DNA of 64,000 nt. Origin: a virus. Its lineage: Duplodnaviria; Caudoviricetes. The notes under the pieces are model-generated. The model made no database searches, was not told the DNA's origin, and saw only the letters and a list, made by a program, of their open reading frames with translations. The DNA lies in the IMG/VR virus record IMGVR_UViG_3300031134_000001, positions 207,027 through 271,026 of that record; one strand, given 5' to 3'. Of this stretch, positions 10,154 to 36,049 are shown piece after piece (positions within the stretch are counted from its first letter, which is position 1; each line of letters starts with the position of its first letter). Position numbers and translations under genes: made by a program.

Positions 10154-10193
10154 ATAAAGCGGGAGGGCTTCGGCTCTCCTGCTTTATGCCGTC
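10154..10193 (+). terminator. Terminator-like hairpin with TATGCCGTC tail
   Basis: ATAAAGCGGGAGGGC-TTCG-GCTCTCCTGCTTTAT. Confidence 0.8.
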
Positions 10194-15323: not shown

Positions 15324-15349
15324 AAGGGGATTGACCATCCCCTTTTTTT
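15324..15349 (+). terminator. Intrinsic terminator
   Basis: AAGGGGAT/ATCCCCTT stem plus T tract. Confidence 0.8.
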
Positions 15350-15381
15350 GTACCTATAATTAACAACTAAAAGGAATTCAT

Positions 15382-15774
15382 ATGGCCAACGCAATCGCAG
15401 TTATTATCCCGCCATGGGTGGCTAAGATCAAAAGCACCCTGGTTGAGTCGGACACCACGGTCTACCAGTTCTTCCCAGGACTGATGCAGTGGCGTAACGT
15501 CGACTACATGGAGCGCATCATGCTCATCTACGGCGCGACGCCGGGTGTGCGTTTCCAGATCAAAACGCTGTTTGACAACATGCGTGAAGAGGCGCAGTGC
15601 GAAGAGGACCCTCATTGTTTGATAGCCCGCATCGACTTGTCGACCCAATTTCCGAAATGCCTGTATTTGATGTTCAGGCTGGACAGGAACGATGCACCGC
15701 TTATGGGTAGCTATATGCTGCACGTAAACGACGAAGGGCTGATCGAACGCGTGACTCGAATGACGATGTGTTGA
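15382..15774 (+). CDS. Hypothetical protein (130 aa)
   Basis: AACAACTAAAAGGA leader. Confidence 0.85.
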   Translation: MANAIAVIIPPWVAKIKSTLVESDTTVYQFFPGLMQWRNVDYMERIMLIYGATPGVRFQIKTLFDNMREEAQCEEDPHCLIARIDLSTQFPKCLYLMFRLDRNDAPLMGSYMLHVNDEGLIERVTRMTMC

Positions 15775-16247: not shown

Positions 16248-16287
16248 CGTCCCTAGCCCTCCATTACGGGGGGCTAGGTATGCCGTC
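16242..16287 (+). terminator. Terminator-like hairpin with GCATA/TATGCCGTC flanks
   Basis: CCTAGCCCTCC/GGGGGGCTAGG stem. Confidence 0.7.
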
Positions 16288-16317: not shown

Positions 16318-16629
16318 ATGAGTCTCAAAACCATAAAAATTCCAACCAGCGATGCTGCAGCTCCGCGCGTATCCGGCAGCAACGGCAAGCGTCCAAGAAT
16401 GATCGACGTGTTCAACAAGATTCTTATCGAGAAAGGAATCGACGACATGAAGTTGAGCGAGCTTATTCTCGCACACATCAAGAAGGAAGATCCAGAAGAC
16501 ACGGAAGCAATTCAAATGCGCAGTGCTGAACACTGGCTGAACCACCTGAAAGATAACAACCTTTCGTGGGTAAAATTCTGCAAAGGTCTGGAAATGATCG
16601 GTGTGGATGAGCTGGTATTGTCGGTCTAA
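16318..16629 (+). CDS. Small putative DNA-binding (HTH-like) protein (103 aa)
   Basis: C-terminal LSWVKFCKGLEMIGVDELVLSV resembles MTFKHFCQMMDALNCDLMISV in the 56773 protein. Confidence 0.7.
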   Translation: MSLKTIKIPTSDAAAPRVSGSNGKRPRMIDVFNKILIEKGIDDMKLSELILAHIKKEDPEDTEAIQMRSAEHWLNHLKDNNLSWVKFCKGLEMIGVDELVLSV

Positions 16630-16699: not shown

Positions 16700-17419
16700 A
16701 TGGCAAAAAAGAAAGCTACTACCGCAGTCCAAGAGCCAATCAAATCGCAGATGGGTGACATCATTGCCATCTGTTTGACGCCTAAGAAAGAAACCAACGA
16801 AGAAAGTGAAACGGGGACCAATGTCGCCGTGGCGCGCATCGGGGAAGTGCTCCGAGCGACCAACGCCTACGAGACGATCGATGTCATCAATATCAAAGAC
16901 GTTGACCTGAACGCGCCACTCATCTACGCCGAGAAAGATGGCGACAAAGAAATGCAGGAGTACGTCAGCACCGGCGAAGGCAAAGTCACCATGGCGTTGG
17001 TAATGAACCAATACAAGCGTGATCGCGATCGTGGCGACATCGAAGAGAAGGACCGCTTCATCGCCATGGGTGAAGAAGCCATCAAGACCGAAGATGAAGC
17101 GCGCCGTAAGCATCTGCGCGAAGCCATCCTGGAGGCGAACAACGCTGCTGACAAGCGCCGTGCTGAAGCGGTGCTGCATGCGTTCGACGTGGCCAACCGC
17201 TGGTCGACTGCGCCAGAACTCACGCCACGTGAACGGGTCCATGGCGCTACGCGCGAACTGTACCACCACTACGGCCCAACCCAAGCCCGTGATGAGCATG
17301 GTCGCTTTGTCCATGTGGAAGCGGGGCCTGAGTACGACGCCCACTACGAAGCGCACTTCGCGGAAGACATCAAGTTCCGCTCGATCCGCGCTGCCAAAGA
17401 TTTGTTCGGAGGTAAATAA
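16700..17419 (+). CDS. Array member 1, C-terminal motif protein (ends RSIRAAKDLFGGK)
   Basis: AAGGAG RBS; shared ERVHGA helical domain and terminal motif. Confidence 0.9.
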   Translation: MAKKKATTAVQEPIKSQMGDIIAICLTPKKETNEESETGTNVAVARIGEVLRATNAYETIDVINIKDVDLNAPLIYAEKDGDKEMQEYVSTGEGKVTMALVMNQYKRDRDRGDIEEKDRFIAMGEEAIKTEDEARRKHLREAILEANNAADKRRAEAVLHAFDVANRWSTAPELTPRERVHGATRELYHHYGPTQARDEHGRFVHVEAGPEYDAHYEAHFAEDIKFRSIRAAKDLFGGK

Positions 17420-18105
17420 TGGCTGAGGAAAAAGACATCGATCCACCAGTCGGCACCGTCGTTACCATCATGGGGATGCCGATCGGTAAATCCCCAGAAA
17501 GCGTGATGCGCGCCATCAACGATATCTCGGAAGCAGCACTGGGCCACTTCACCAAAGTCGAGGTAGCTCACCTTCCCAATGTTCCTCTTTTTACCGCTGA
17601 GGTTGTCAAAAATAACCCTGACGAACTTGACAACGAATACCTGGCTACGCCGGTAGGTCGTGCGGCTTCCACTGTGTTTGCTGGCAGTATGCGAACTCTG
17701 GATGACCTTGAAGACAAAAAGGAAGAAGCTCGCTTGGCCACGATGTCGCCAGAAGAAATCGAAGCGGAAGAGGAGCGACTCGATGCATGGGCTAAGAACT
17801 TGAAAGAAGAAGCTCGCGCCAACACGCTGAAAGAAATCCGGCAAGGGGTTATTGAATCCTACGAAATCGCTGAGAAGTGGGCGATCACGCCTAACGTCAC
17901 AGCGCGTGAAGTGGCCCACGGCGTGGCGCATGACATGCATGCCCATTTGGCTTACGATTATGGCAAGCCGGGCGAGTACCGTCCAGAGCGGACTTACCCA
18001 ACGCCATCCCAAAATTACCAGTCGTACTACACGGAACAGCTGGCTGATGAAATCAAGGCGCGTTCTATCCGTGCAGCGAAAGACCTTTTTGGAGAAGGCC
18101 GATGA
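17419..18105 (+). CDS. Array member 2 (ends RSIRAAKDLFGEGR)
   Basis: TAATG overlap; shared domain and motif. Confidence 0.9.
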   Translation: MAEEKDIDPPVGTVVTIMGMPIGKSPESVMRAINDISEAALGHFTKVEVAHLPNVPLFTAEVVKNNPDELDNEYLATPVGRAASTVFAGSMRTLDDLEDKKEEARLATMSPEEIEAEEERLDAWAKNLKEEARANTLKEIRQGVIESYEIAEKWAITPNVTAREVAHGVAHDMHAHLAYDYGKPGEYRPERTYPTPSQNYQSYYTEQLADEIKARSIRAAKDLFGEGR

Positions 18106-18779
18106 GTAAAGAAGAACCTAACCGCGATTGGAATGCGGAACATCGCGAAATCAATGAAAAAGGGCATCAAGATCTCGCGCGTCTTTATATCAAGGACGCG
18201 AACAAGCGTAAGGACGATATGTTCTTCGATGGTCAACCCATCGATTCGCCTAACCGCTTGGCAGCTCGCGCGATCATCGCGCTGGTGGGGGATCGCACGA
18301 ATGCGGATTTTCTTGATCTGCATCAGCATGGCCGTAGCGAAATAACTAACATCGCTGTCGAGATCATCGGACAAGTCAACGCTCAGCAAGTGGCTGACTC
18401 CATTTACGAAAGGGTCCAAGTCGTGGATGCGCCTAAAGATAAACCCAACCCAACGCCAAGCAAGTTGGACCAAGCCATGGAAAACATGCAGTACACGTTT
18501 TCTGAACTGTCAATGGCGCGGCGCGATGATGAATTGCGCGAAGTCATGACCGCCGCAGTTAACTGGGGCAATCGCGATGACCTGTCGCCGATGGAGCGTT
18601 GTCAAGGGTTGGCACATGAGCTCTATAGCGAGTGGGGTACCGATACCGTGATGACCGCCGACGGCACTACGGTACCCACCAGCCCTGGGCTTAACTACGC
18701 TCGCATGTACGAGCATGGCTTTGCCGAAGAAATCAAGGCGCGCTCGATGCGGGCTGCTAAGGATTTGTTCGGCTCGTAA
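18102..18779 (+). CDS. Array member 3 (ends RSMRAAKDLFGS)
   Basis: ATGA overlap; shared domain and motif. Confidence 0.9.
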   Translation: MSKEEPNRDWNAEHREINEKGHQDLARLYIKDANKRKDDMFFDGQPIDSPNRLAARAIIALVGDRTNADFLDLHQHGRSEITNIAVEIIGQVNAQQVADSIYERVQVVDAPKDKPNPTPSKLDQAMENMQYTFSELSMARRDDELREVMTAAVNWGNRDDLSPMERCQGLAHELYSEWGTDTVMTADGTTVPTSPGLNYARMYEHGFAEEIKARSMRAAKDLFGS

Positions 18780-18788
18780 AGGAGAATC

Positions 18789-19964
18789 ATGGCAAACAAC
18801 TACCAGGACATAGTTGGTCAAATTTATCTTGAAAAGATGACCCCCGTTATCGCAGCTCTTTTCAAGACCTACAACCTTAACCCTCACTCTAACTATCCAG
18901 GCAATGGCGCCTACGGCATCTGGTGTGGCGAATTGGTCGGCAACGACTATCCGACGTGGGATAGCTTTGCAGAGTCGCTGAGAGAACTCTGTCAGCAACT
19001 TAACATTGTCGTTGATGATGGAAACATCGAAGAAGAAAACGAGTTTTACGCTTACTTACTGAAACTCCTCTTTACCTTCTTTGGCGCTATCGATAAAGAA
19101 GATGCGAAAGCATATATCGAAATAGCGAGAACGTGCGATTCATACGACTTCGTCGAACTGCGTTATCTGTTTAACATCGCCCAACTCATGAACGACGGAC
19201 ATGGCTTAAAGCGCTATGAAGTTGACAGCGCGTTTTACTGCTCCAAACCGCGTCACCAAGAGTTTGGTGGTTATGGCGAATACCACAGCCACCATGTCCA
19301 TTCATTTGAAGGTTCAATCCAGGCTTGTTTGTTTGGCGCCGCTTTAGAAGAAGATTTGCTGGCTAAGCGCTACGACGCCGCTGCAGCGCGTATCGTCGAC
19401 AAAACCGCACGCTCACTCAACTGCATCACCAACCCAGAAGACCGTCAGAAAGTTCAAAGTCTGGTCGTGAAGGAAATGAATACCCTACACACGCCCATTC
19501 CGCAAGGTCAACCCGCCAGCAACGAACCTACTATCAACCCCTACGACATCGACGCAATCATCGACGCGCCTGTGGTACAAATGACACATAGTGAGCAGCG
19601 CTCGGAAATCGCGGGTGCTATTTACAACATCGCGCGGGAGTGGGCGGATAAGCCGGCACACTTCGATCCATACGAACGGGTGCATGGCGCGCTCTGCAGC
19701 TTCATCAGTCTGCTCGAAGACGGTAATGGTGAAACTGTACCACCCATGCAGTTGTATCCGATTCCTGCAAGCCACAAAAGTTACGACACCTCGGTTTTCC
19801 GAGAAGGTCCAGAATGGCAAGTCGGGCAATGGCGCTTTAATCAGCCTATCCCGATGTACGAAACAAATAACCCACAACACAGTTTGTTGAACGAATTCAT
19901 CACCACTGCGGAGACTCTGGAACGTCGACGAATCGAAGCGGCTAAGAAAATGTTCGGCACCTAG
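18789..19964 (+). CDS. Array member 4 (ends RRIEAAKKMFGT), with ICE/plasmid-like N-terminal domain
   Basis: AAGGAG RBS; FDPYERVHGA domain; N-terminal MANNY...TPVIAALF...YPGNG...CSKPR.EFGG. Confidence 0.9.
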   Translation: MANNYQDIVGQIYLEKMTPVIAALFKTYNLNPHSNYPGNGAYGIWCGELVGNDYPTWDSFAESLRELCQQLNIVVDDGNIEEENEFYAYLLKLLFTFFGAIDKEDAKAYIEIARTCDSYDFVELRYLFNIAQLMNDGHGLKRYEVDSAFYCSKPRHQEFGGYGEYHSHHVHSFEGSIQACLFGAALEEDLLAKRYDAAAARIVDKTARSLNCITNPEDRQKVQSLVVKEMNTLHTPIPQGQPASNEPTINPYDIDAIIDAPVVQMTHSEQRSEIAGAIYNIAREWADKPAHFDPYERVHGALCSFISLLEDGNGETVPPMQLYPIPASHKSYDTSVFREGPEWQVGQWRFNQPIPMYETNNPQHSLLNEFITTAETLERRRIEAAKKMFGT

Positions 19965-19976
19965 AAAGGCAACACC

Positions 19977-20363
19977 ATGGACCACGACAAGATGCAACAC
20001 CGTCGTTTCTTTACAGATGCAGCGTATCGCGCAGTGACTGAAGCGACGGCCGATAGCTTTGTAAAGGCAATGCAAGACTATAGCGCGCTGCCCGTCAACG
20101 AAGAGGACTACGCTGGGGATAAAGCCAAAGATTACTTCCCTGCGGTTGATGCCGCAGACATCGCGGCTGGAGCTATTCTTTCTGAATTGTCTCATCGTCT
20201 CGACTTCCATTACGAAGTCGACCACCATGGTAACCACGACATGAATGACATGGTGGCGTCGATTATTCGCAAGAGCATGGCGCCTGCTACCGTAGAGCCG
20301 CCTGAGGCCACGTTTGAATCGATCGACATTCGTGCGCTGCTCGACGATACTAACAAGTCGTAG
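19977..20363 (+). CDS. Array-embedded protein lacking the terminal motif; homologous to the N-terminus of the 20377 protein
   Basis: RRFFTD..YR...PAVDAADIAAGAILSELS vs RRYFTD..YR...PIVDQADLAAEAVLSQLS. Confidence 0.9.
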   Translation: MDHDKMQHRRFFTDAAYRAVTEATADSFVKAMQDYSALPVNEEDYAGDKAKDYFPAVDAADIAAGAILSELSHRLDFHYEVDHHGNHDMNDMVASIIRKSMAPATVEPPEATFESIDIRALLDDTNKS

Positions 20364-20376
20364 AAGGGAAATCCAA

Positions 20377-21165
20377 ATGGAAGATAAGAAACAATCGCGG
20401 CGGTACTTTACTGACAAAAACTATCGTCATCAAATCCAAGAAGCCGCTTACGCCGATGTAGAGCGTTCTAAAATCTTCATGGGGGAAGATCTCGATAAAG
20501 GCACCGAACATTACCATCCCATCGTTGACCAAGCTGACTTAGCGGCCGAAGCGGTCCTCAGTCAGCTGAGTGATCGCAGTGGTATTCAACTTGATTTCGA
20601 CCCTGAAACGAATCACGAAATCGCTGACACTCTGGCAGAAATCATTCGCCACAGCATGGCTGCCCAAGTCTACGAGCGTCCTCCGCTGGACTACACGCCG
20701 TTCGTTTACCACGATGAAAAGTGGCCGTTCTTCGACGACAACGAAATTCGCTCCGAAGGCGGGACGTACACACCCCACGAAGTGCGTCAGCAGCTGTTTA
20801 ACCGCATGATCGACAAAGCGATGACGTGCGGTCAAGAGGAAGGCAACTACACGCCAACTGAACGCTGCATGCGGACGGTGCACGGCGTCATCGGTTTGAT
20901 CGATGGCAAAGGTGGTAATCGTTCGGATGGTAAAGGTCTGCCGGTCATGCAACTGATGATCTGCCCAAGCCCCGAGTATTCGGAAGAACGTGCCCGTAAA
21001 GGGCTGCCGTTGTATGACAACAGCGTACCGCTTGACTGCGGATTGCCCGCACCTGACTATGAGACCGGGCTGACACGGGCATTCGAAGACCACTACACCA
21101 GTCGGTTTGAAACGTCCATTCGCGCCCGGCAACTGCGCGCAGCGAAGGATCTCTTTGGGAGCTAA
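20377..21165 (+). CDS. Array member 5 (ends RQLRAAKDLFGS); start revised to 20377
   Basis: AAGGG RBS; shared domain and motif. Confidence 0.9.
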   Translation: MEDKKQSRRYFTDKNYRHQIQEAAYADVERSKIFMGEDLDKGTEHYHPIVDQADLAAEAVLSQLSDRSGIQLDFDPETNHEIADTLAEIIRHSMAAQVYERPPLDYTPFVYHDEKWPFFDDNEIRSEGGTYTPHEVRQQLFNRMIDKAMTCGQEEGNYTPTERCMRTVHGVIGLIDGKGGNRSDGKGLPVMQLMICPSPEYSEERARKGLPLYDNSVPLDCGLPAPDYETGLTRAFEDHYTSRFETSIRARQLRAAKDLFGS

Positions 21166-21166
21166 C

Positions 21167-21595
21167 ATGGACACAAGCATGATGGAGCGTGTCACTCAAT
21201 TTCACGCACGCGTCGAAGCGCTGTCTGCTTTGTTTGATTGGGACGTGTTGGGCGATCTAGCTGCCGAATACATCGAGTACGTCGGTAAGATGGAAAGCAT
21301 GACGGTGGATGAAGCGATCGCTGAACTCACGCGGTGGGCTGTTAAGAAGCAGGAAAAGCGGCGCTCGATAGAACAGCGACGCTATTTCAAAATGGCGCAG
21401 CATGTAGCAGCGCAGCACCTTACTCTACCAGAAGCCTGTCACTTCATGGCCAAGCATTTCTACGTCATGCACCATCAAGTCAAAGGAGCGCCTGAAATCA
21501 TTTCGCAAGAATACAATGCGTTGTACGATCGTACGTATTCTGACGCCATCAACGCCCGCCAGGCGCGTGCTGCAAAAGATCTTTTCGGGGGGTAA
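21167..21595 (+). CDS. Array member 6 (ends RQARAAKDLFGG); start revised to 21167
   Basis: GGGAG RBS within the upstream gene end. Confidence 0.88.
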   Translation: MDTSMMERVTQFHARVEALSALFDWDVLGDLAAEYIEYVGKMESMTVDEAIAELTRWAVKKQEKRRSIEQRRYFKMAQHVAAQHLTLPEACHFMAKHFYVMHHQVKGAPEIISQEYNALYDRTYSDAINARQARAAKDLFGG

Positions 21596-21598
21596 GTA

Positions 21599-22378
21599 AT
21601 GTTTCAATACGAACAACCTGCGCAATTAAGCGGCGTTAGCCGAATCGTGTCGGACTCGGATTATGGTAACGAATGCGTAATGCGTGTGGAGCATGGCGCC
21701 GAAGTACGTTTCCCACCTTACCCAATCTCTTGCGGCTACGTGCGTGTGGTAAAGAACGGCAATGAGATCGGCTACTGGGATGCACAAGAATGGATGGAGG
21801 CGCCGGAAGAAGTCATGGGTGCGATCATGGGCGCTGCGATGAGTGGTGATCATGCTGCACATACAGCAACTCTATCTGAAGAAGTCGCTGGCGAAATCAA
21901 AGAAGGTTTGGCTGCACACGGCATGGTGGATGCCCAGCCATTGGCCAAACTGCGTCCTTACGAACAGATCCAAACTCTGGCCGATGTGACGCATCAGGTG
22001 GCTGCGCATTGGGCGTACCGTGACGATCCTGATCTCGGTGTGGAAGAACGTGTCATGGGCGCAGTACACGGCGTGCTGGACGTACTGCAAAACGGCTTGA
22101 TCGAACGGTTACCAGCATTTCAACTCGTACCCATCGATCCTGAAACGGACGAAGGTTGCGTGCAATGGGTGAACCGTAATCAGAAAGATGTCGTGGCGGC
22201 AGATTGGAACTATGGCGTTCCCTTCGATTTGTCAGTACGTGCTACACCTGAGATGGGTCCTGCTGGTGCGCTTCTGGGAAAGAGCCCGCCCTCATCGCTC
22301 ACTTACCGTTTCGAAGAGCACTACGAAAACATGCGTAGCCGGTTCCGTACGTCGGCGGAGGATCTTTTCGGAGGCTAG
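21599..22378 (+). CDS. Array member 7 (ends RFRTSAEDLFGG)
   Basis: EERVMGAVHGVL domain; distinct N-terminal domain (GYVRVVKNGNEIGYW...EVMGAIMGA). Confidence 0.9.
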   Translation: MFQYEQPAQLSGVSRIVSDSDYGNECVMRVEHGAEVRFPPYPISCGYVRVVKNGNEIGYWDAQEWMEAPEEVMGAIMGAAMSGDHAAHTATLSEEVAGEIKEGLAAHGMVDAQPLAKLRPYEQIQTLADVTHQVAAHWAYRDDPDLGVEERVMGAVHGVLDVLQNGLIERLPAFQLVPIDPETDEGCVQWVNRNQKDVVAADWNYGVPFDLSVRATPEMGPAGALLGKSPPSSLTYRFEEHYENMRSRFRTSAEDLFGG

Positions 22379-22939
22379 ATGTCGAAGGAAGACAGTGAGG
22401 TGTTGGGTTGGTACGCTCAGCACGTCATGACAAACAACCCAGAGTTCTTTGGCACTCCCGAGAGCTGGGACCCTAAATTAAGAAGGGGGGCTGATATGGC
22501 CAAGAAATCGTTGAGTATTAACGATGTCGGCAACGTGTACGAAATGCCGGCACTTACCAAGGAGGAAATGCTTACCATCATCGCACAACGAGCTTATAAC
22601 AGGGCGTTATTGTCGTGGGGTGAGGGCGTAACTAACGCGCGCTTGACGATCAACGATCGGGTGCTGGGGGCTGTATACTCAACATTCGAATTGCTTCAAG
22701 AGGGCAGAGAAGGGCTGATGCCGCCAATGGAGCTGGTGCCGCATGTTAGTGAAGACATAGTGGTTCATATAGAGCGCGAAGGGCATGAAGTTGCCTGTTG
22801 CTGGCCAGAAGACCCAGTTCTCTTGGCACCAGACACGCGCGACGCCACCAGCATGACTGCGGTGTTCTCTACCGTTTACGATCGCTATAAAGACCGCTTG
22901 GCTGCGTCTGCTAGAGATCTTTTCCAAACTTACGAATAG
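22379..22939 (+). CDS. Array member 8 (ends RLAASARDLFQTYE)
   Basis: NDRVLGAVYSTF...MPPMELVP domain. Confidence 0.88.
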   Translation: MSKEDSEVLGWYAQHVMTNNPEFFGTPESWDPKLRRGADMAKKSLSINDVGNVYEMPALTKEEMLTIIAQRAYNRALLSWGEGVTNARLTINDRVLGAVYSTFELLQEGREGLMPPMELVPHVSEDIVVHIEREGHEVACCWPEDPVLLAPDTRDATSMTAVFSTVYDRYKDRLAASARDLFQTYE

Positions 22940-22947
22940 GCGTTACT

Positions 22948-23817
22948 ATGCCACGTGATGAAGGGTTCTATAACCCATCCCAACATTTCAGCCCAGCGAT
23001 CCAGTATCAGCTCAACCAAGAGCAGATCAAAGAACTGATCGAAAGCACAGCCATCGCTGCAGCGCAAAAGGTACTGCAAGCAAACGGCTACGGCAACCCT
23101 TACGAACAACCAGCAGTCGACCCGAACGCACCGCGCGCCTACACCAGGGAAGAAGTCACCGAGCAGATCCTTGAAGGCGTTGTAAGGAATGTGCGGTACT
23201 GGCAAAAGCAGCCTAACTGTGGCACGATGGAACACCGAGTCGAGGGCGTGGCGTTTTCCATTCTCTCCATGTTGGACGGCTCGACCCTGGATTTGCCAGC
23301 CTTCAATCTCTCGCCTGATCCGGCGGAAGACGACATGAACTACCATATCGAAGAAGGAGAAAATTACTACGATCCCGATACGGTGATCTCTACGTCGCTC
23401 CATGAACTGTTTCATCCAACGATGAAGCGGTTGTACCCAGATACGAAGCATCCAGAAGGCTACAGCGAACTCTCGCCAGAGGAAATGCGCGAACAGTTTA
23501 CTGGCATGATATCGCGCATGGTGGATGTGGCTGGGACTTCTTCGGCCGACAAACTCGAAGCGTGTGAACGTCTGGGGCGCGATGTGTTGCTGGTACTGGA
23601 CGGTAAGTACTCGCCGTACATGCCAGGCTTCATGTTGTTTGCGGCGCCCACCCAGGACTTCAATGCCCGAGAAATCAAAGAAGGGCGTAAAGCCTGGGGC
23701 AATCATATCCCCCTGAACCGTCAGGAACCCACGTACGGCATGACCGATTCCTTGGTGGACGCGTACGACACCATCCGCGGGCGTAGCGCTAGAGCTGCGC
23801 GTGACATGTTTAAATAA
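22948..23817 (+). CDS. Array member 9 (ends RSARAARDMFK), two tandem copies of the shared domain
   Basis: EHRVEGVAFSILSMLDG..LPAF and EACERLGRDVLLVLDG..MPGF. Confidence 0.9.
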   Translation: MPRDEGFYNPSQHFSPAIQYQLNQEQIKELIESTAIAAAQKVLQANGYGNPYEQPAVDPNAPRAYTREEVTEQILEGVVRNVRYWQKQPNCGTMEHRVEGVAFSILSMLDGSTLDLPAFNLSPDPAEDDMNYHIEEGENYYDPDTVISTSLHELFHPTMKRLYPDTKHPEGYSELSPEEMREQFTGMISRMVDVAGTSSADKLEACERLGRDVLLVLDGKYSPYMPGFMLFAAPTQDFNAREIKEGRKAWGNHIPLNRQEPTYGMTDSLVDAYDTIRGRSARAARDMFK

Positions 23818-23831
23818 GAAAGGTATTTCGC

Positions 23832-24236
23832 ATGACTACTACTCCATCTGCTATTCTCCTGCCGATCAACGTGGACGAAGACGCCATGTCGGCCAGTCCC
23901 TACCAGGGCGAACGTATCGCCTCGACCATCACCGAAGCCATTCAGTACGGCTTGGGCATCATGGATCTGCGTCAAAACGAGATCTACGAAAAGAGCCCGG
24001 CGGATGTCAAGGCCGCATGGGAAAGCCACACAGACGACTACGTCGGCAAGATGCGGGCACAAACCTTCCCAGGCGCGACGACCGAGGAGACGGAGCTCTT
24101 GCAAAAGATCACCGACATCCTGAACCTGCAACGCCGGCGTGAGCGTGAAGAATCGCATCTTAGTCACGATTCGATCATCTTGCTGTGGCTGCAAATTAGC
24201 AGTGCAGCGCGTCAGTATCTGAAACCAAAAGCATAA
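23832..24236 (+). CDS. Hypothetical protein (134 aa), last gene of the array operon
   Basis: AAGG RBS; ends SAARQYLKPKA, not a clear motif match. Confidence 0.8.
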   Translation: MTTTPSAILLPINVDEDAMSASPYQGERIASTITEAIQYGLGIMDLRQNEIYEKSPADVKAAWESHTDDYVGKMRAQTFPGATTEETELLQKITDILNLQRRREREESHLSHDSIILLWLQISSAARQYLKPKA

Positions 24237-24285
24237 CGCCCCCCAGCCCTTAACGGGGCTGGAGTTATGCCGCTATTGTTTTTTG
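24231..24285 (+). terminator. Intrinsic terminator with GCATA/TATGCCGC flanks
   Basis: CCAGCCC/GGGCTGG stem then T tract. Confidence 0.8.
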
Positions 24286-24328: not shown

Positions 24329-24907
24329 ATGTCCATTGCCATCTATCGCCATTTGAAACTGTCAGTCGCTGTCCCGATCCACCGTGAACCCAACGTTGTA
24401 CAGCTGTCACGCCGCAAGGTACATGATTTTTGTCTGGACCAAGATGCTGAAGGCGGTTGGGTAGGGTCGATTGAATTTAGTACCATAGCACGCCGCTTGG
24501 CTCGACTTAACGTCTACAAACAACTGTGGCAAATCAAAAACGGTCAGCTGTTGATCACCCACCGCACTTACTGCAACGGCTCTTTGCGTTCGGTTACGAC
24601 ACCGGCTTTAATCGCACCAGCCTTAACCACGGTCTGGACATTAAACAACGACGTGGCCTCGATCAGCAAACAGTTCGCTGAGGAACAAATCACCAGTCGT
24701 GTTGCAATCGAGCGTTATCTGCATGACCATACGCCGAATCCATTTGACTTTAAGATTATCGTCATGGACTTTGATCCTAACAAACAACTCATGGGTCGAC
24801 CTTATTACACCACGTACTTGGTTCGCACTCGCGATAAAGTTGAAAGGATGGCGACCTTTGACCACAGTGAGGATTCTAACGCATGGGCAAAACTATTTCT
24901 AACGTAG
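24329..24907 (+). CDS. Hypothetical phage protein (192 aa)
   Basis: First ORF after the terminator; C/A-rich leader. Confidence 0.8.
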   Translation: MSIAIYRHLKLSVAVPIHREPNVVQLSRRKVHDFCLDQDAEGGWVGSIEFSTIARRLARLNVYKQLWQIKNGQLLITHRTYCNGSLRSVTTPALIAPALTTVWTLNNDVASISKQFAEEQITSRVAIERYLHDHTPNPFDFKIIVMDFDPNKQLMGRPYYTTYLVRTRDKVERMATFDHSEDSNAWAKLFLT

Positions 24908-25305
24908 TTGAAAACTTGCTGGTCATGGATATTGGCGACATTCTCGATGACTTGCAAAAAGAGTTACAACGCATCGGCATTCGCTCTGTGTGTGAAGATT
25001 GGCACAAAGGTCCCATTGAATCGTTCCTCTACGAGATCTTCACCGAGGTTGGGTACTTGCCCGATGGCGAACGCCGAGTAGCGTATAACGTCACTGACGT
25101 GTTAGATACGAGCGGCCAGTACTTTGATCGCGGCGACATGTGCTCATACGAACGCATTCAGTGGATGATCACCGTCCAGCGCTTAATCAACCGGTTCGTG
25201 GAATACCGTTTGTACGGCAAAGACCACGTGCACGTCTACGACTTCTTCGCTTACGAGAACAACACGCTTTACTTACAACATCACGCAGACAATCATGGCG
25301 ACTAA
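24883..25305 (+). CDS. Hypothetical protein (140 aa), possible paralogue of the next two genes
   Basis: Overlapping operon; similar C-terminus. Confidence 0.8.
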   Translation: MGKTISNVVENLLVMDIGDILDDLQKELQRIGIRSVCEDWHKGPIESFLYEIFTEVGYLPDGERRVAYNVTDVLDTSGQYFDRGDMCSYERIQWMITVQRLINRFVEYRLYGKDHVHVYDFFAYENNTLYLQHHADNHGD

Positions 25306-25744
25306 CCAACAACAATACACCATCGACATTTACGAAGCCGTGGAGCGCTTTAACGGTTACCATCAAGCGTATGCTAACCTCGCAGTACCGGCGGCGCTAC
25401 ACCGCGAATACATCGACATGCTCATCGAGCAAATGATCGCGCACTTTGAAGTCGAGCGCACCGCAGTGCAGATGTTTGTCGGTCACTACACCCAGCTCAT
25501 CACCGACCACTCCATCTCCCCACGCTTCAAATACCATCCGCTGAACTTCCTGCGGCAGATGGATAACGAGGGCTACCGCAACTATATCTACTGCCTGTAC
25601 GGTTTTGCTGAAGACATGTTCAAGATCTTCCAGGCGCATCAGTTCTACAATAGCCGCGGTATTTTGCTCGCTAGCTTTCAGCATATCAACGGGAACAATC
25701 TGTATCTCGTTGTCAGACCGGAGGTACCTGATGTCTTCCATTAA
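25295..25744 (+). CDS. Hypothetical protein (149 aa)
   Basis: Overlapping operon. Confidence 0.85.
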   Translation: MATNQQQYTIDIYEAVERFNGYHQAYANLAVPAALHREYIDMLIEQMIAHFEVERTAVQMFVGHYTQLITDHSISPRFKYHPLNFLRQMDNEGYRNYIYCLYGFAEDMFKIFQAHQFYNSRGILLASFQHINGNNLYLVVRPEVPDVFH

Positions 25745-26231
25745 CGACAAAACTAGCTTTGCACCAGAGCCTCTGTATCCAGGAGATTACTACCTGGTCG
25801 ATTGCGCCGAACCTATCAGTCGCTTCATGCAAACGCCGTACAACGTACGCATGCACATGGCGTCTGATTCAGAAGAGATGACTGAGTACGACATGGTTGA
25901 TGTGGAGCTCACTGAACTGGTGGATGCTCTGGTGATGCGTAACCCAGTGGACCATCTGGACAACCACGCGGACCAGCTGTTAGAAGAAGGTACGAACGTT
26001 CTGCGTGAAGAAGCCATCATGCAAGGCATTCACAAAGAAGGTCAGGTCTATACCAACACACCAGTACAAACCCAACACGCTGATGCTGTACTACAGCTCG
26101 GGTTTGATTTGTCACGACTCTTAAAGCAGTACGGGTTCTATCATGCAACGGGAATGTTGGCAGTAAAGTACCATCAGTTACTGCCCAATGGATTGGTCGT
26201 ATTTAGAAAAGAACCCACGCCGTATTACTAA
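25731..26231 (+). CDS. Hypothetical protein; start revised to 25731
   Basis: GGAGG RBS before ATG 25731. Confidence 0.85.
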   Translation: MSSINDKTSFAPEPLYPGDYYLVDCAEPISRFMQTPYNVRMHMASDSEEMTEYDMVDVELTELVDALVMRNPVDHLDNHADQLLEEGTNVLREEAIMQGIHKEGQVYTNTPVQTQHADAVLQLGFDLSRLLKQYGFYHATGMLAVKYHQLLPNGLVVFRKEPTPYY

Positions 26232-26243
26232 ATACCACCATCT

Positions 26244-26650
26244 TATGTAAACAATGTTCCCCTAGCGTGACTTACCGTGTAGCGTTAAGGTTAAAATGTG
26301 TCACCAGGCCCCAGCAGAGCCAACTTCGGGATAAACTCACTCAGTCGAATGAGGTTGGGGCGAAACAGGTGGTAAACGGTACGGGCCTTCTTCACAGAGC
26401 CAAGCTGTCATTAGGAATTTTCGGTCGAGCGCTGACGCGCGATTATTCGAGTGTGCAACGGCAACCCAGATTGGATGATAGTCCTTCGTACTGCGAAGTC
26501 ACGTTATCTAGTAAGGGTTGTCGGTGCGTAGGTTTCATGTGCCTACAAACTTCTTCGCGGCGCAGGTGCCGGGGTAGAGTTTTGCGACATGATGCTGTTT
26601 TCCTAAGTTTTTCTTTAGCACAGGAGCCTTCGGGTTCCTGTGTCTTTTTA
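26244..26650 (+). ncRNA. Candidate structured ncRNA, about 400 nt, family unrecognised
   Basis: 486-nt gap with no credible CDS; several nested stems; TATG upstream and UUCG terminator downstream. Confidence 0.45.
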
Positions 26651-26657
26651 TGCCGTC
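26619..26657 (+). terminator. Intrinsic terminator with TATGCCGTC tail
   Basis: ACAGGAGCC-TTCG-GGTTCCTGT then T tract. Confidence 0.85.
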
Positions 26658-26679
26658 AATTCTTTTTTTGGTTAATTCT

Positions 26680-26683
26680 TATG
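26680..26683 (+). promoter_or_regulatory. Candidate late promoter TATG
   Basis: TCTTATGAG in AT-rich context upstream of a virion gene; similar TTCTATGAG at 32900; phiKZ late consensus is TATG. Confidence 0.4.
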
Positions 26684-26717
26684 AGTCAACCCCTCGATAA
26701 CCCTTACAGAGAACACC

Positions 26718-28160
26718 ATGCGAAAGTTTTCCTACGCAGCGCCTGTCGTAAAACTTCAACTGTCAGCTGAAGAAGAAGCCATTCAAATTGACGAAAGCAA
26801 TCAGTCGGCACATGAGCTCGAACAAACCAGTGCAGACATCGACCGTCTCGGCGATATCGTCGTTACCGTCAACGAAGTGCAAACTGTCGTTAGTAATACA
26901 CCAGAGATTCAACCGATCGATGCAGCGCTTACTGGCGCCGTTGGTGAAATGGCTGTAGCTGGCACCGATATCGCACCTGACGATATCATCGAAGAGATGC
27001 TTCCCAGTGAAAATGTGAGCACTGAAAGCTTTGTGGCTGCTGCCAAAGAAAAGCTCGCCGCAATGTGGAAAGCCATCAAAGAGTTCTTCGCTAAGATGTG
27101 GAAGCATGTCAAAGATTTCTTTGGCGTCGGTAAAAAGAAAGCCGAGAAGCTCGAAGAAAAGCAAAAGAAAACGGACGAAAGCTACGCTCATTTGAAAGGC
27201 TTAGGCATTCATAACGAAAATGACTACAATGCCTTTGTGCGTGAAGTCGAAAAAGCAATAGACGCAGACGCTAAAAAAGCGGACAAGATTCCCACGTTCC
27301 ATTTCTACAATCAAAATTCGAAGTTGTGTTTGGGCGATTCCACAAAACCACTTCCACCCCGCCAGTTGGTCGTTGAGTTGCAACATCTGCTCAAAGAAGG
27401 CGAACACATGTACAAGTCGTTTTGCGATGGCGTACTAAAGTTGCTCGACTACCTCGCCAACACTGTCGAACAATGTTTGAAAGACCCAGAGCGCGCGGGT
27501 GATACGTATAAAGACATGCGTGAAGGCTATCAAAAGATTGCCGATAAGCTGTTCCTTGATCTGAAATTCCATAACGGCACCACGCCTGGTCCGTTGCTGG
27601 GTGACCTTCATTTGGCAGTAATGAGTTATACACCGGGTGAAGAAAGAGGCACCATGTGGTCGCCGCGTATTCACCTACCATTTACGATGGGAGGCGGCGC
27701 CGATGAAATTCAAGAACCGGTAATGTTATCGGATGGCGTCAAGTTAAGCGAGAATGTCCATGCCTGGATCAGGTTGACTAAAGGATTCTTCGGTCAAGAA
27801 ATGGTCGAGAAGATCCAGCAGAAAAGCCAAAAGGTCGAAAGCCTTATCGAGCAGCTCATTAAGCATCGGCCAACCGACGCCGAACTGCGTGGGGAGCACG
27901 TAGGCAAAGATGAAGACCCAATCGTCAAATATGCCGCAGGCGTGAGTAAGTTTGGGATCGATATAGCAATCGAGCGGCTGGCTTATGAATCTAAAGAGTT
28001 GGTCACTATGGGTGTGACGGCCGCTGTGAAACTGCCACAACGGATTCATCAGATCTTTGAAGTGGCAGCTGATTACGCTGAAGCGTCGTCGATGTATCTG
28101 TTGAAGCACGGTATCGTTGGTGACGCTGCTGAAGCTGATTTTCAAAACAAATTGAAATAA
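26718..28160 (+). CDS. Virion internal head protein (phiKZ-like paralogue family)
   Basis: Acidic propeptide with LSAEE and VSTES protease-type sites, followed by amphipathic helix AKEKLAAMWKAIKEFFAKMWKHVKDFF. Confidence 0.8.
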   Translation: MRKFSYAAPVVKLQLSAEEEAIQIDESNQSAHELEQTSADIDRLGDIVVTVNEVQTVVSNTPEIQPIDAALTGAVGEMAVAGTDIAPDDIIEEMLPSENVSTESFVAAAKEKLAAMWKAIKEFFAKMWKHVKDFFGVGKKKAEKLEEKQKKTDESYAHLKGLGIHNENDYNAFVREVEKAIDADAKKADKIPTFHFYNQNSKLCLGDSTKPLPPRQLVVELQHLLKEGEHMYKSFCDGVLKLLDYLANTVEQCLKDPERAGDTYKDMREGYQKIADKLFLDLKFHNGTTPGPLLGDLHLAVMSYTPGEERGTMWSPRIHLPFTMGGGADEIQEPVMLSDGVKLSENVHAWIRLTKGFFGQEMVEKIQQKSQKVESLIEQLIKHRPTDAELRGEHVGKDEDPIVKYAAGVSKFGIDIAIERLAYESKELVTMGVTAAVKLPQRIHQIFEVAADYAEASSMYLLKHGIVGDAAEADFQNKLK

Positions 28161-33711: not shown

Positions 33712-35907
33712 ATGAAAAGCATCATCTTTAACAACGCTGCGGACGCCCGTGGCCTGAGCGGTTTCCTGACCAAAGCACTCGACCACGTCGACACCTTCGC
33801 TCATTCGAGCGCCGGCAAGACCGTGAGCAAAGGCCTGCTGTCGATCGAATCGATCGCTGGTAACGTGCACGAAGTCAACACCCTGAAAACCGCCGCCAGC
33901 GAACTGCTGAACCACATCGAAACGTTCGCTGCCGAATCGTTCGGCTTGAACGACAAAAACGGCAAGCTGCAACACGACTACAACAAAAACCAGCTGCAAG
34001 CTGCGACGATCGCCGCCATGCTGGGTCACGACCTGGGCGCTGCTGTCAAGGCACCAACCAAGCCAACGTTCTCGACCGAAGGCATCGCTGTCTGCGAAGT
34101 CGGCGACCGTACCCCGTTCGAACGCCGCGCTGCGAACGAAGCATACGACGAACAATCGACCTCGACCTCGGTCGCGTTCTCGATCGCCTACAACCTCGAA
34201 TGCGCACGTCAATCGGAACTGGCTGAAACGCTCTTCCCGACCGTCGTGATCCCGCCAAACGAGTCCGGCCTGTTCATGTCGATCGACCTGGCCCTGCTGC
34301 AAGACGATGCGAACCGCCAGATCAGCGGCGCCATCACGAACTTCCACCGCTACAACGTCATCCGTGCCCAGACCTACCCGGAACTGCTGCACAACGACGC
34401 ATCGGACCTGGTCCCAGTGCTGCGCGACGAAAGCGTCCAGAACTTCGTGTCGGATGCTCTGGTTCAGCCGGTCACCCGCAAAATGCACAACGGTGAAGAA
34501 ATCACCACCAACGCCCTGAAAATCGGCGCCAAGTTCGACCTGCTGGCCCTGTCGCACACCGACTCGATGGTTGCCAAAGGTATGGCCAACCAGACCGACT
34601 CGATCGACACCGGCGTGTTCCTGGAAACCATCCTGATCGCGCTGAAATCGGCCGACGGCACCAAGACCGAAGTCATCCGCTTCAACGTCAAAGAACTGCC
34701 ATACGCCAGCTACTACCCAGCGAGCCAGGGCGACTACCGCGACCAACAACTGTCGTTCGACAACAGCGATCTGCTGGTCTCGGAAAAGACCGTCACGGCC
34801 GACGGCGGCGTCTCGACCCTGCTGGAACCAATCCGCACTGGCAAGTACGAAGTGCGCATCTCGGTGTCGCTGGCTGGTCGTCTGAACCTGCAATTCGGTA
34901 ACGGTTCGGTCTACGGTCCTGCACCGGAAGTCGCAACCCTGTCGAAGAACGCACAACAAGTGTCGATCACCGGCGGCGCCGGCAAAACCATCGCCGACAT
35001 CTTCAAGGGCGCCGAGATCATCGGTTACACCCTGGCAGCCAAGCGTTCGAACCTGAACCGTCGTCTGCGTGGCCAGACCATGGACACCAACACCAAGAAG
35101 CAGTTCTACCCACTGAACCTTCTGGCACCGGTCACCATCGTTCGTCCACACAGCGCCGGCGACGTCAACGACGCACGCGACCTGTCGTTCCTGATCTTCA
35201 CCACGAAGACCCGTTCGTCGATCGACGCCATCGAAGTTCTGCAATCGCACTGCGCGACCATGAAGTCGATGCAAGGCCAATACCACCGTCCTGGTGAAAC
35301 GGTCGAAACCTTCGGCCTGGCCCGTTGGTTGCTGGACCCGTACTACGGCTACGACAAGTACGTCGCCCCACAAGTCGTCGACTCGCTGAAGTCGTCGGAG
35401 CGTAACGCGGACATCCGTGCTTCGCTGACCAACATGGTCCAGGATCACGTGTTCAAGATGTGGCAACTGTCGAGCTACGGCCCGGCATCGGCATCGCAAA
35501 ACGGTGGCGTCGGTCAGATCCCGACCGTCATCATTGCCTGCGATCCACGCATCGAGCAATACCTGAACATCCAGGGCGACCTGCGTCTGCTGGGCGACAA
35601 GTTCCCAGTCAAGGTCGTGTCGGACACGAACATCAAGCTGCGTGGCAAGATGTACATCACGTTCGGCAACATGGAAACCGCTGCGCAAGGCATCCCGAAT
35701 GTCCTGCACTTCGGCACCACCATGTATCGTCCGGAAATGACGATCATCCTGCCAGTGTCGCGCGATGGCCAGACCTCGAAAGAAGTCACCGTGTCGCCGG
35801 CGTTCCGCCACTTCGTCAACCTGCCACTGATCGTCGAGATCGACGTGGAAGGCATCGAAGATGTCGTCAACGCCAAAGTGCCTGTCGTTCTGAAGGAACT
35901 GCCGTAA
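33712..35907 (+). CDS. Major capsid protein (phiKZ gp120-like)
   Basis: 731 aa; N-terminal S/A-x-E sites (SIE, AAE, STE, ANE); NLECARQ..LAETLFPTVV; extreme codon bias; synteny. Confidence 0.9.
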   Translation: MKSIIFNNAADARGLSGFLTKALDHVDTFAHSSAGKTVSKGLLSIESIAGNVHEVNTLKTAASELLNHIETFAAESFGLNDKNGKLQHDYNKNQLQAATIAAMLGHDLGAAVKAPTKPTFSTEGIAVCEVGDRTPFERRAANEAYDEQSTSTSVAFSIAYNLECARQSELAETLFPTVVIPPNESGLFMSIDLALLQDDANRQISGAITNFHRYNVIRAQTYPELLHNDASDLVPVLRDESVQNFVSDALVQPVTRKMHNGEEITTNALKIGAKFDLLALSHTDSMVAKGMANQTDSIDTGVFLETILIALKSADGTKTEVIRFNVKELPYASYYPASQGDYRDQQLSFDNSDLLVSEKTVTADGGVSTLLEPIRTGKYEVRISVSLAGRLNLQFGNGSVYGPAPEVATLSKNAQQVSITGGAGKTIADIFKGAEIIGYTLAAKRSNLNRRLRGQTMDTNTKKQFYPLNLLAPVTIVRPHSAGDVNDARDLSFLIFTTKTRSSIDAIEVLQSHCATMKSMQGQYHRPGETVETFGLARWLLDPYYGYDKYVAPQVVDSLKSSERNADIRASLTNMVQDHVFKMWQLSSYGPASASQNGGVGQIPTVIIACDPRIEQYLNIQGDLRLLGDKFPVKVVSDTNIKLRGKMYITFGNMETAAQGIPNVLHFGTTMYRPEMTIILPVSRDGQTSKEVTVSPAFRHFVNLPLIVEIDVEGIEDVVNAKVPVVLKELP

Positions 35908-36004: not shown

Positions 36005-36049
36005 TACCTCCTCCTACCTTCGGGTAGGGGGAGGCTGTTCTATGCCGCC
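36005..36049 (+). terminator. Terminator-like hairpin with TATGCCGCC tail
   Basis: CCTCCTCCTACC-TTCG-GGTAGGGGGAGG. Confidence 0.75.

Follow-up and report, generated by a model that had tools for sequence, protein, structure and literature searches.

Nine of ten consecutive plus-strand genes (g1 to g10 in the open reading frame list, positions 16700-23817) of an uncultured phiKZ-like giant phage with a complete genome of 271,026 bp end in the same C-terminal module, a domain of 70-135 aa whose last helical turns carry the motif R...AAKDLF. Judged by sequence comparison, this small helical module descends from a widespread phage protein of ~100 aa, and R...AAKDLF is a clade-specific extension of helix 3 of that fold; in the structural model this 'tag' is the end of a folded domain and no free peptide. 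The explanation that we favour, with confidence and doubt in about equal measure, is that variable effector domains share one dimerising adaptor, the two terminal helices of which would together touch a single partner, likeliest at the phage head. The following features were delimited, with positions counted in the window, i.e. the whole stretch of 64,000 nucleotides that was analysed:

16252..16286, plus strand: terminator/promoter-like cassette opening the operon, a GC-rich hairpin (16252-16278) with TATGCCGT immediately after it
16318..16629, plus strand: u1, 103 aa, at the head of the operon, no tag, weak match to phrog_4910
16700..17419, plus strand: g1, 239 aa, short-form module, C-terminus RSIRAAKDLFGGK
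17419..18105, plus strand: g2, 228 aa, short-form module, C-terminus RSIRAAKDLFGEGR
18102..18779, plus strand: g3, 225 aa, short-form module, C-terminus RSMRAAKDLFGS
18789..19964, plus strand: g4, 391 aa, long-form module, C-terminus RRIEAAKKMFGT; residues 1 to ~240 homologous to a family of ICEs and plasmids
19977..20363, plus strand: g5, 128 aa, untagged and without the module, duplicates the N-terminal part of g6
20377..21165, plus strand: g6, 262 aa, long-form module, C-terminus RQLRAAKDLFGS
21167..21595, plus strand: g7, 142 aa, short-form module, C-terminus RQARAAKDLFGG
21599..22378, plus strand: g8, 259 aa, long-form module, C-terminus RFRTSAEDLFGG
22379..22939, plus strand: g9, 186 aa, C-terminus RLAASARDLFQTYE, the paralog chosen for modelling
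22948..23817, plus strand: g10, 289 aa, ~100-aa phage domain (residues 60-158) and tagged module (residues ~170-289), C-terminus RSARAARDMFK
23832..24236, plus strand: d1, 134 aa, at the end of the operon, no tag
24241..24273, plus strand: cassette closing the operon and opening the next unit, a hairpin (24241-24264) followed by TTATGCCG
26718..28160, plus strand: PF12699 gene (phiKZ internal head protein), given for context only, 33.1 bits against a cut-off of 27

Homologs of u1 occupy the same position in related phages, and the start of g6 at 20377 is backed by orthologs with the N-terminus MEDKKQ. Cassettes of a hairpin and TATGCCGT, such as bound the array operon, occur ~31 times in the genome. 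The PF12699 gene lies ~3 kb from the array as a separate unit with its own cassette of this kind (26617-26656), and it is the same neighbor in related phages.

The motif R-x3-[AS]-A-[KR]-D-[LM]-F, followed by 1-4 residues before the stop, was present in nine array genes; the nine shared endings listed in an earlier sequence-only reading of this DNA were exact, and g5 is the only one of the ten genes to lack such an ending. A six-frame scan of the 271,026-bp genome (all 2494 ORFs with a length of 50 aa or more) placed the motif at the C-terminus of these nine genes exclusively, so it is not due to chance, and a profile of the module run against the whole genome matched the nine genes, the first domain of g10 and nothing else. 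Neither search of the genome turned up the tag on a different fold, and no case of the motif separate from the module was found in the genome or in the related phages, in all of which it is still C-terminal (1-7 residues from the C-terminus throughout). The divergence at synonymous sites claimed in the same reading is real, g1 and g2 encoding the identical peptide RSIRAAKDLF with 8 of 10 codons different. The highest conservation was recorded (g9 numbering) for F182 (4.32 bits), A76 and R173 (both 3.98), A178 (3.86) and L181 (3.64); as a segment the tag is the most conserved of the module, above any core column, in paralogs that are ~20% identical overall. Its amphipathicity is strong (mean hydrophobic moment 0.62-0.66) and its net charge positive (+1 to +3); many copies end in LFGG, and the hydrophobic face is turned by ~100-130 degrees from that of the preceding half-helix.

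In the AlphaFold2 model of g9 (mean pLDDT 81.7) the module spans residues ~55-186 at a pLDDT above 90 and comprises helices at 61-80, 91-108 and 159-182 and a hairpin at 129-141. The tag (R173-F182) makes up the final turns of an unbroken helix of 24 residues (residues 161-180 at a pLDDT of 92-94), a flexible linker before it is absent from the model, and its spacing to the module is fixed among the paralogs. Because the motif always accompanies the same module and belongs to a continuous, confidently modelled helix without a linker, the tag was not regarded as a free peptide. Three-helix bundles aligned with the model from one end to the other, as far as residues 182-186. The invariant Ala-Ala pair and the Phe are of the type found at buried positions, which counts against an exposed contact surface, and a packed helix with a structural role alone would likewise account for the high pLDDT and the end-to-end alignment. 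Helix 2 is what had been noted upstream of the endings as a loosely conserved helical domain (ERVHGA and its variants). The front of the module matched the stand-alone phage family of ~100 aa with an hhalign probability of 98.5% over helix 1, helix 2, the DG loop and PxFxLxP. The stand-alone proteins terminate in LHExF, a stretch aligned with the first residues of helix 3, so that R...AAKDLF would lie beyond the ancestral fold.

For the g9 homodimer the prediction gave an ipSAE of 0.88, the best control reaching 0.00, and the runs yielded 236-249 contacts at 98-100% agreement with a partner pLDDT of 83-84. In the calibration of the tool the dimer mark was reached by 20 of 30 solved one-chain pairs and by one of 23 solved single chains, counts that hold only roughly here because our own alignment served as input. 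The module most likely forms a tight symmetric dimer, predicted to be held by helices 1 and 2, the loop and hairpin, and also the N-terminal half of helix 3. The predicted interface includes A76, W80, G81, R94-V99, F163, Y167 and Y170 and thus nearly all conserved residues other than the tag, residues 171-186 being located outside.

The N-terminal parts had been described as largely unrelated, which holds for their variability at large and not for g1, g2 and g3, which are alike well upstream of the module, nor for g5, which repeats the first 100 aa of g6 (40% identity over 107 aa). The N-terminus of g4 is 33-40% identical (E-values 1e-21 to 1e-33) to proteins of ~228 aa otherwise found alone, and its residues 1 to ~240 matched that family with Atlas TM scores of 0.80-0.92; the names that the source gives, 'YecA family' and 'CdiI immunity domain', had no support in Pfam. 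On ICEs, the genes for these proteins neighbor those of a topoisomerase and an orphan DNA methylase; on conjugative plasmids they are found in the vicinity of a Lar restriction-alleviation gene. The first domain of g10 is an intact phage domain of ~100 aa, 47% identical to a Salmonella phage seszw protein, and its stand-alone counterparts occur elsewhere among small genes near DNA methylases. It is from these gene neighborhoods only that a role of the N-terminal parts against defence systems was read, and perhaps they have one. Of the cargo-plus-tag system proposed from the sequence, the modular layout was retained: at least two N-terminal parts exist alone on mobile elements, and the terminal stretch is the most conserved and falls outside the predicted dimer interface. 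The short free tag was given up, the motif being bound to the module within a linker-free helix.

In the explanation that we favour, each member would join a different N-terminal 'working' part to the one common C-terminal module, and the array would represent a clade-specific, rapidly diversifying accessory family. With the tag as an extension of helix 3 peculiar to the family, there would be two such invariant, strongly amphipathic ends per dimer (R173, A177/A178, D180, L181 and F182 in g9), and the paired terminal helices may provide the common contact surface that brings all members to one site or partner, the existence of which we infer. The most probable site would be the head during its assembly, with packaging and co-ejection as the outcome, given that the cassette is of the late TATG type, an internal-head-protein gene is nearby, and the proteins are acidic (pI 4.6-6.4), fast-evolving (28-58% identity between related phages vs. 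75-86% for helicases) and variable in copy number (3 to 10 among about six related metagenomic phages). The late promoter consensus of phiKZ is 5'-TATG-3' with the G as start site (PMC4666361); a cassette with TATGCCGT also stands ahead of a helicase gene, so it is no proof of late timing. No RNA run was found to contain this DNA. The N-terminal parts would act on the host. Internal-body proteins of phiKZ, i.e. injected head proteins, were still packaged when they carried C-terminal fluorescent fusions (10.1101/2024.03.24.586471), and a C-terminal packaging signal would therefore be without precedent in phiKZ.

It is possible, though rather unlikely, that the role of the tag is purely structural, the buried end of helix 3 stabilizing the module or dimer of paralogs that act independently and share no partner. 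This would agree with a continuous, confidently modelled helix that has no linker, matches three-helix bundles through residues 182-186 and never occurs without the module; the Ala/Ala/Phe residues could pack, and the charged ones could form salt bridges with D/E93-R94 at the start of helix 2. That the motif was simply a buried helix of the shared domain had been named beforehand as the outcome that would speak against a tag, and in the model this is partly so, the motif being the end of a continuous helix of that domain. However, the stand-alone relatives fold without the extension, and the tag is more conserved than every core column despite the low identity of the paralogs. It also lies outside a confident dimer interface that accounts for the other conserved residues, and its hydrophobic face is rotated relative to that of the half-helix before it.

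We consider it improbable that homo- and heterodimers are linked by their terminal helices into a body of the inner-body or scaffold type within the head, the proteins being structural components and not effectors. The homodimer prediction is strong, and heterodimers are plausible because the predicted interface residues are those conserved across the paralogs; tandem two-domain relatives exist (g10 and several stand-alone family members), an internal head protein gene is adjacent, and the inner body of phiKZ is itself built by tandem paralogs (10.1101/2024.03.24.586471). On the other hand, the array has no sequence relation to PF12699, a copy number of 3 to 10 would be unusual for a fixed structure, and the domains of g4 and g10 also exist by themselves, as accessory proteins on other mobile elements.

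A free linear tag docking unrelated cargos on the nuclear shell or importer, the capsid, a protease or the sliding clamp is very unlikely. The constant position near the C-terminus, the very strong conservation and the variable N-termini would be expected of it, but a disordered or variable linker is missing, the spacing to one folded module is fixed, and no other fold in the genome carries the motif. Docking on the sliding clamp was not borne out, the Gln being missing and the context structured; moreover, chimalliviruses are without a ring clamp, and their clamp-like Rhc binds the polymerase thumb and not a tail motif (PMC13648698). No import signal of this kind was reported in the papers on import that were consulted.

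The C-terminus of E. coli MinD reads ...KRLFGG, and a MinD-like dimer presenting two amphipathic C-terminal helices to the inner membrane or early infection vesicle would suit the amphipathicity, the predicted dimer, the positive charge and the LFGG ends, but is scarcely credible given a non-polar face made mostly of alanine, a conserved Asp and a Wimley-White interfacial free energy of tag and tail that was unfavourable in 39 of 39 sequences (median +3.3, minimum +0.5 kcal/mol).

Among known systems, the phiKZ inner-body cluster (PF12699; gp92-97, gp162 and gp163) likewise consists of tandem, fast-evolving paralogs with one common domain and variable remainders, whereas the array has no sequence similarity to PF12699 and forms its own transcription unit. 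The capsid targeting sequence (CTS) of T4 internal proteins and the cargo-loading peptides of encapsulins resemble it in that one conserved terminal element is attached to different proteins. Both direct to an HK97-fold shell, the former being N-terminal and cleaved and the latter C-terminal, after flexible linkers, on unrelated folds. The array element differs as the helix end of a folded, predicted dimerising domain. Bacterial beta-clamp-binding motifs (QL[SD]LF, QADMF) share the location near the C-terminus and x-D-[LM]-F. They are extended peptides in disordered tails, of which an invariant Arg and Ala-Ala are not part, whereas the array motif is helical, lacks the Gln and belongs to a domain. 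The phage family of ~100 aa comprises 1400 representatives at 50% identity, including phiKZ gp257/gp258, PHROGs 27353, 11061 and 29367, Salmonella phage seszw gp74 and Ralstonia phage RP31 ORF180; no Pfam entry, solved structure or known function was found for it. Helix 1 (A..W), helix 2 (ER..G), the DG loop and PxFxLxP are common to this family and the module, but the tagged copies of the array have lost the PHPxDK, GENW and LHE motifs and gained a helical extension of 12-15 residues ending in R...AAKDLF.

The virus record is complete (271,026 bp with direct terminal repeats), and the window is its final 64 kb. The major capsid protein, encoded at 33712-35904, is of the phiKZ type (phrog_3231). 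The nearest cultured relatives are distant, with capsid identities of 39% to Burkholderia phage FLC9 and 33% to Ralstonia phages RP12 and RP31. The DNA was obtained from a phyllosphere metagenome, and related DNA occurred in samples from straw, food production, dairy and wastewater; plant-associated Pseudomonadota are the likely hosts. No RNA run was found to contain this DNA, and a megablast search of the array against 50,697 phage records gave no DNA match.

The array consists of ten tightly packed genes on the plus strand (16700-23817, here g1 to g10). As the sequence-only reading had it, nine of the ten, that is all except g5, carry the C-terminal R...AAKDLF tag, and the Phe is followed by 1-4 residues. 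When the complete genome was scanned in six frames (2494 ORFs of at least 50 aa), the tag stood at the C-terminus of these nine genes only, and a genome-wide search with a profile of the C-terminal domain that the tagged proteins have in common (hereafter the module) matched only the nine tagged genes and the first domain of g10. The claim that the peptide itself is conserved was borne out by g1 and g2, which both end in RSIRAAKDLF while 8 of the 10 codons differ, so that the conservation acts at the peptide level and does not reflect recent duplication or gene conversion. In 39 sequences taken from this phage and its relatives, the motif reads R(-9) x x x [A/S](-5) A(-4) [K/R](-3) D(-2) [L/M](-1) F(0), and it is followed by 1-7 residues, which puts it at the extreme C-terminus. 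The tag (R173-F182 in g9 numbering) is the most conserved part of the module: F182 reached 4.32 bits, R173 3.98, A178 3.86, L181 3.64, A/S177 3.50 and D180 3.31, and the sole comparable column outside it was A76 in helix 1 (3.98 bits).

Alignments of the nine paralogs and of the 39 modules delimited a common C-terminal region of 70-135 aa. It consists of a helix 1 ending in A..W, a loop with L-T, a helix 2 starting with (E/D)-R-x-x-G, and a last helix that bears conserved aromatic residues and has the tag at its end; the long-form modules (g4, g6, g8, g9 and g10) additionally have a DG loop, P.F.L.P and a hairpin. A five-residue "insertion" in helix 3 of the short-form paralogs in the MAFFT alignment was rejected as an alignment artefact, since a continuous heptad pattern fits better. 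The ten array proteins had no match in Pfam, PHROGs or NCBIfam except PHROGs of unknown function for g10. The front of the module is nonetheless homologous to a stand-alone family of phage proteins of about 100 aa: comparison of the 39 tagged modules with 59 stand-alone proteins in hhalign gave a probability of 98.5% and an E-value of 1.5e-15 over 65 aligned columns. A profile search of 1.84 billion representatives with the g10 orthologues as query returned 1400 matches to this family, mostly of 100-130 aa, including phiKZ gp257 and gp258, Salmonella phage seszw gp74 and Ralstonia phage RP31 ORF180. The domain falls into PHROGs 27353, 11061 and 29367 and has no Pfam entry, and no relative among solved structures was found by sequence with the stand-alone profile. 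Several members (P0027, P0031, P0033 and P0040) are tandem double copies, which is consistent with the domain working as a dimer, as predicted below.

The tagged modules have the features of the N-terminal half of this domain (YW/A..W in helix 1, R.EG.AFSIL in helix 2, the LDG loop and P.F.L.P). The motifs of its C-terminal half (PHPxDK, GENW(Y/F), and LHExF 2-20 residues from the end) are absent from them, hhalign leaves that half unaligned, and within the array it is kept only in the first copy of g10; the tagged module is therefore a derived subfamily and not a typical member. The stand-alone proteins end shortly after the conserved LHExF, which in a joint alignment falls at the start of the tagged last helix, and R...AAKDLF is thus an added extension specific to the clade. 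No tagged genes were found within 10 kb of the stand-alone domain in phages carrying only that domain. Of the cultured relatives, phiKZ and RP31 have the base domain in untagged form only, and PhiPA3 has one weak match to it (E 2.7e-4); FLC9 gave no match when searched for the domain.

For g9, an AlphaFold2 model built on a 98-row alignment had a mean pLDDT of 81.7, rising above 90 in the module. Its helices span 61-80, 91-108 and 159-182, and a hairpin lies at 129-141. The third helix is continuous, and its final turns, at pLDDT 92-94 through residue 180, are the tag. The g10 model (10 orthologues, pLDDT 59.8) was too poor for use. Foldseek searches of the g9 model against PDB and BFVD returned nothing at E <=0.1, and the ESM Atlas gave TM values of at most 0.32. 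VIA-align over 48,161 chains reached a best Z of 5.0, all matches being generic helical bundles; the best structural matches were generic three-helix bundles aligned from about residue 55 to 182-186. Atlas look-ups for g1 and g10 were uninformative apart from the stand-alone domain.

Homodimer prediction for g9 residues 50-186 gave an ipSAE of 0.88 (best of three controls, 0.00), with 236-249 contacts, 98-100% contact agreement between runs and a partner pLDDT of 83-84. In the calibration of the tool, 20 of 30 proteins solved as same-chain pairs and 1 of 23 solved as single chains attained this mark; the counts apply only approximately here, since our own alignment was used. The predicted interface takes in almost all the remaining conserved residues and comprises A76, W80 and G81 of helix 1, R94, V95, G97, A98 and V99 of helix 2, the loop, the hairpin, and F163, Y167 and Y170 in the first half of helix 3. 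It ends at residue 170 and leaves R173-F182 wholly outside. Between the half-helix before the tag and the tag itself, the hydrophobic face turns by about 100-130 degrees. On this model dimerisation explains the conservation across the module, but not that of the tag.

The N-terminal parts had been read as largely unrelated, which did not hold for g1, g2 and g3, which are mutually similar, nor for g5, which corresponds to the first 100 aa of g6 and is a module-less copy. No relatives outside the clade were found for g5 or for the N-terminus of g8. Ahead of its tagged copy g10 has an intact 100-aa phage domain (residues 60-158), linked to the stand-alone family by profile search and PHROG match. 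Residues 1 to about 240 of g4 are 33-40% identical to Pseudomonadota proteins of about 228 aa (E 1e-21 to 1e-33; Atlas TM 0.80-0.92), for which the names "YecA family" and "CdiI immunity domain" were not adopted, as they are without Pfam support. These g4-like proteins occur in integrative conjugative elements (ICEs), beside genes for a TopA-like topoisomerase, an orphan DNA methylase, DUF5983, DUF3085, DUF3577 and DUF3275, and on large plasmids, most of them conjugative, from Cupriavidus, Enterobacter and Aromatoleum, in one case with a Lar restriction-alleviation gene about 5 kb away; the 50,697 phage records held no match to the family. As judged from sequence, the N-terminal domain of g4 (18789-19538, residues 1-250) is a case of domain exchange between phages and ICEs. 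The stand-alone domain is likewise encoded among small genes near DNA methylases, and the two neighbourhoods, typical of establishment or anti-restriction regions, provide a lead.

Tagged arrays were confined to a small clade of metagenomic phages, in the following numbers.

Tagged genes per locus in the window and in related metagenomic phages
This window: 9
L008: 8
L009: 7, plus 1 untagged
L018 (= L043): 10
L042: 8
L021 (more distant): 3
L019 and L020: fragments

Paralog identity between the related phages was 28-58%, against 75-86% for the DnaB-like and SNF2 helicases, and all paralogs are acidic (pI 4.6-6.4).

The array is flanked by two untagged genes, u1 (16318-16629) and d1 (23832-24236), and this set is bounded on both sides by a recurrent cassette. 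In each, a GC-rich hairpin (10-14 bp stem, often with a loop of 4 nt) stands 0-5 nt ahead of TATGCCGT, and about 31 such sites occur genome-wide.

Hairpin and TATGCCGT cassettes
10157-10192, plus strand: cassette
16252-16286, plus strand: cassette ahead of u1
24241-24273, plus strand: cassette after d1
26617-26656, plus strand: cassette ahead of the gene at 26718-28160, which matches PF12699 (phiKZ internal head proteins)
36006-36047, plus strand: cassette
About 31242, 59340 and 35, minus strand: cassettes

The late promoter consensus of phiKZ is 5'-TATG-3', with the G as start site (PMC4666361). The cassette resembles a terminator joined to a promoter of the phiKZ late type (TATG), placed at transcription-unit boundaries across the genome, and u1, g1 to g10 and d1 look like a single operon under a late-type promoter. 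The late type is tentative, because the same cassette also precedes a helicase gene, and PHROG annotation of the genes that follow the remaining TATGCCGT cassettes showed no division into late and middle genes.

Further features were observed around the array. The u1 family has a conserved C-terminal ...GxxxxG(I/V)D(E/D)xxLL(V/I) and is duplicated in one related phage (L009:3472-4139). The four genes downstream (24329-26231; 192, 140, 149 and 166 aa) occur in synteny throughout the related phages and are without a family match; the 192-aa protein has the near-invariant start M(S/P)IAIYRH(L/F/M)KL, and conservation is highest in the 149-aa protein (47-68% identity). About 486 nt (26232-26717) separate the gene that ends at 26231 from that of the internal head protein. 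They contain no convincing gene, only a GTG-started ORF of 167 aa rich in Arg, Cys and Ser, and close with the hairpin and TATGCCGT cassette; this stretch could be a non-coding RNA or a regulatory region. At 15324-15360 a strong hairpin resembling an intrinsic terminator (15324-15344 and a T run) and a sigma-70-type promoter close to consensus (TTGACC, 18 nt, TATAAT; 11 of 12 positions) overlap ahead of the gene at 15382, which may be due to chance. Phages of the phiKZ type are thought to be independent of the host RNA polymerase, and a promoter of this type is unexpected there.

The observation stands and goes beyond a domain family whose ends are conserved: the tag was added to an older fold in this clade, is the most constrained part of the module, is left unexplained by the predicted dimer, and sits on N-terminal parts that other mobile elements carry on their own. 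We propose that the module is a common dimerising adaptor in which the two terminal helices would make a single contact surface, and that this surface would bring different effector-like N-terminal domains to one putative partner. The late-type cassette, the adjacent gene for an internal head protein, and products that are acidic, evolve fast and vary in copy number would make the head during its assembly the most probable destination, with co-ejection to follow. Taken as a whole, this reading of an adaptor dimer with a shared partner and a destination in the head seems to us evenly poised between right and wrong, with the folded dimer module on far firmer ground than the common partner.

Its main rival, a purely structural helix, agrees with a tag formed by the last turns of a well-predicted helix and has against it the position of the tag outside the predicted interface; we consider it unlikely. 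Co-assembly of the paralogs into a larger body, of which the predicted homodimer would be a part, is decidedly improbable. The sequence-only reading had proposed a free short tag docking unrelated proteins onto one partner, and of this the observation and the independently existing N-terminal parts stood. The free tag itself has become very improbable: there is no flexible linker of variable length, the continuous helix has conserved aromatics at fixed spacing upstream of the tag, and every tag is accompanied by the homologous module and occurs on no other fold in the genome. A membrane helix of the MinD type is hardly credible, as the tag does share with MinD and FtsA an amphipathic C-terminal helix (mean hydrophobic moment 0.62-0.66) on a predicted dimer, but its Wimley-White interfacial free energy was positive in 39 of 39 sequences (median +3.3 kcal/mol).

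In jumbo phages large parts of the genome consist of unannotated paralog arrays, and how proteins are sorted to capsid, nucleus and cytoplasm is an open question. The array described here belongs with the jumbo-phage paralog arrays built on one shared domain and offers a concrete, testable case: an adaptor that is small and probably dimeric, has a single, sharply delimited invariant helix and carries swappable N-terminal domains, one of which links the phage gene pool with the accessory gene pools of ICEs and plasmids. A tentative and rather doubtful extension of the adaptor reading is that in nucleus-forming jumbo phages the helix pair serves as an address label that loads changing host-directed or anti-defence domains into the virion or another single phage structure, with one cargo domain captured from conjugative elements and new cargos recruited by simple fusion to the module. 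Should the helix be an address label, it would be a tool with which proteins could be loaded, and effectors that are ejected or counter host defence could be found through it. Should it be purely structural, the outcome is still a new derived subfamily within a very common phage domain of about 1400 sequence clusters, phiKZ gp257/258 among them, together with the model-based prediction that the 100-aa domain works as a dimer.

In the literature we found neither the motif nor phiKZ gp257/258 described, and no chimallivirus C-terminal import or packaging signal; papers on how chimalliviruses import proteins and on the clamp-like Rhc described no signal of the tag type. None of the ten array proteins had a Pfam match at E <=0.1, and so none matched PF12699, the profile of the internal head proteins. 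The family of gp257 and gp258 resembles the module in the first half of the fold and differs from it in the second-half motifs. The suggested likeness to clamp-binding motifs failed, since the consensus Q-L-[SD]-L-F or Q-x-x-[LM]-x-F has a leading Gln that is conserved nowhere in the tag, where A stands at position -4 and A/S at -5 in 36-39 of the 39 sequences. The T4 CTS and the encapsulin cargo peptides are alike at most in the idea of a label, as their flexible linker and unrelated folds are missing here. With the encapsulin cargo peptide, the SSB tail and the clamp-binding peptide the tag has in common its position at the extreme C-terminus.
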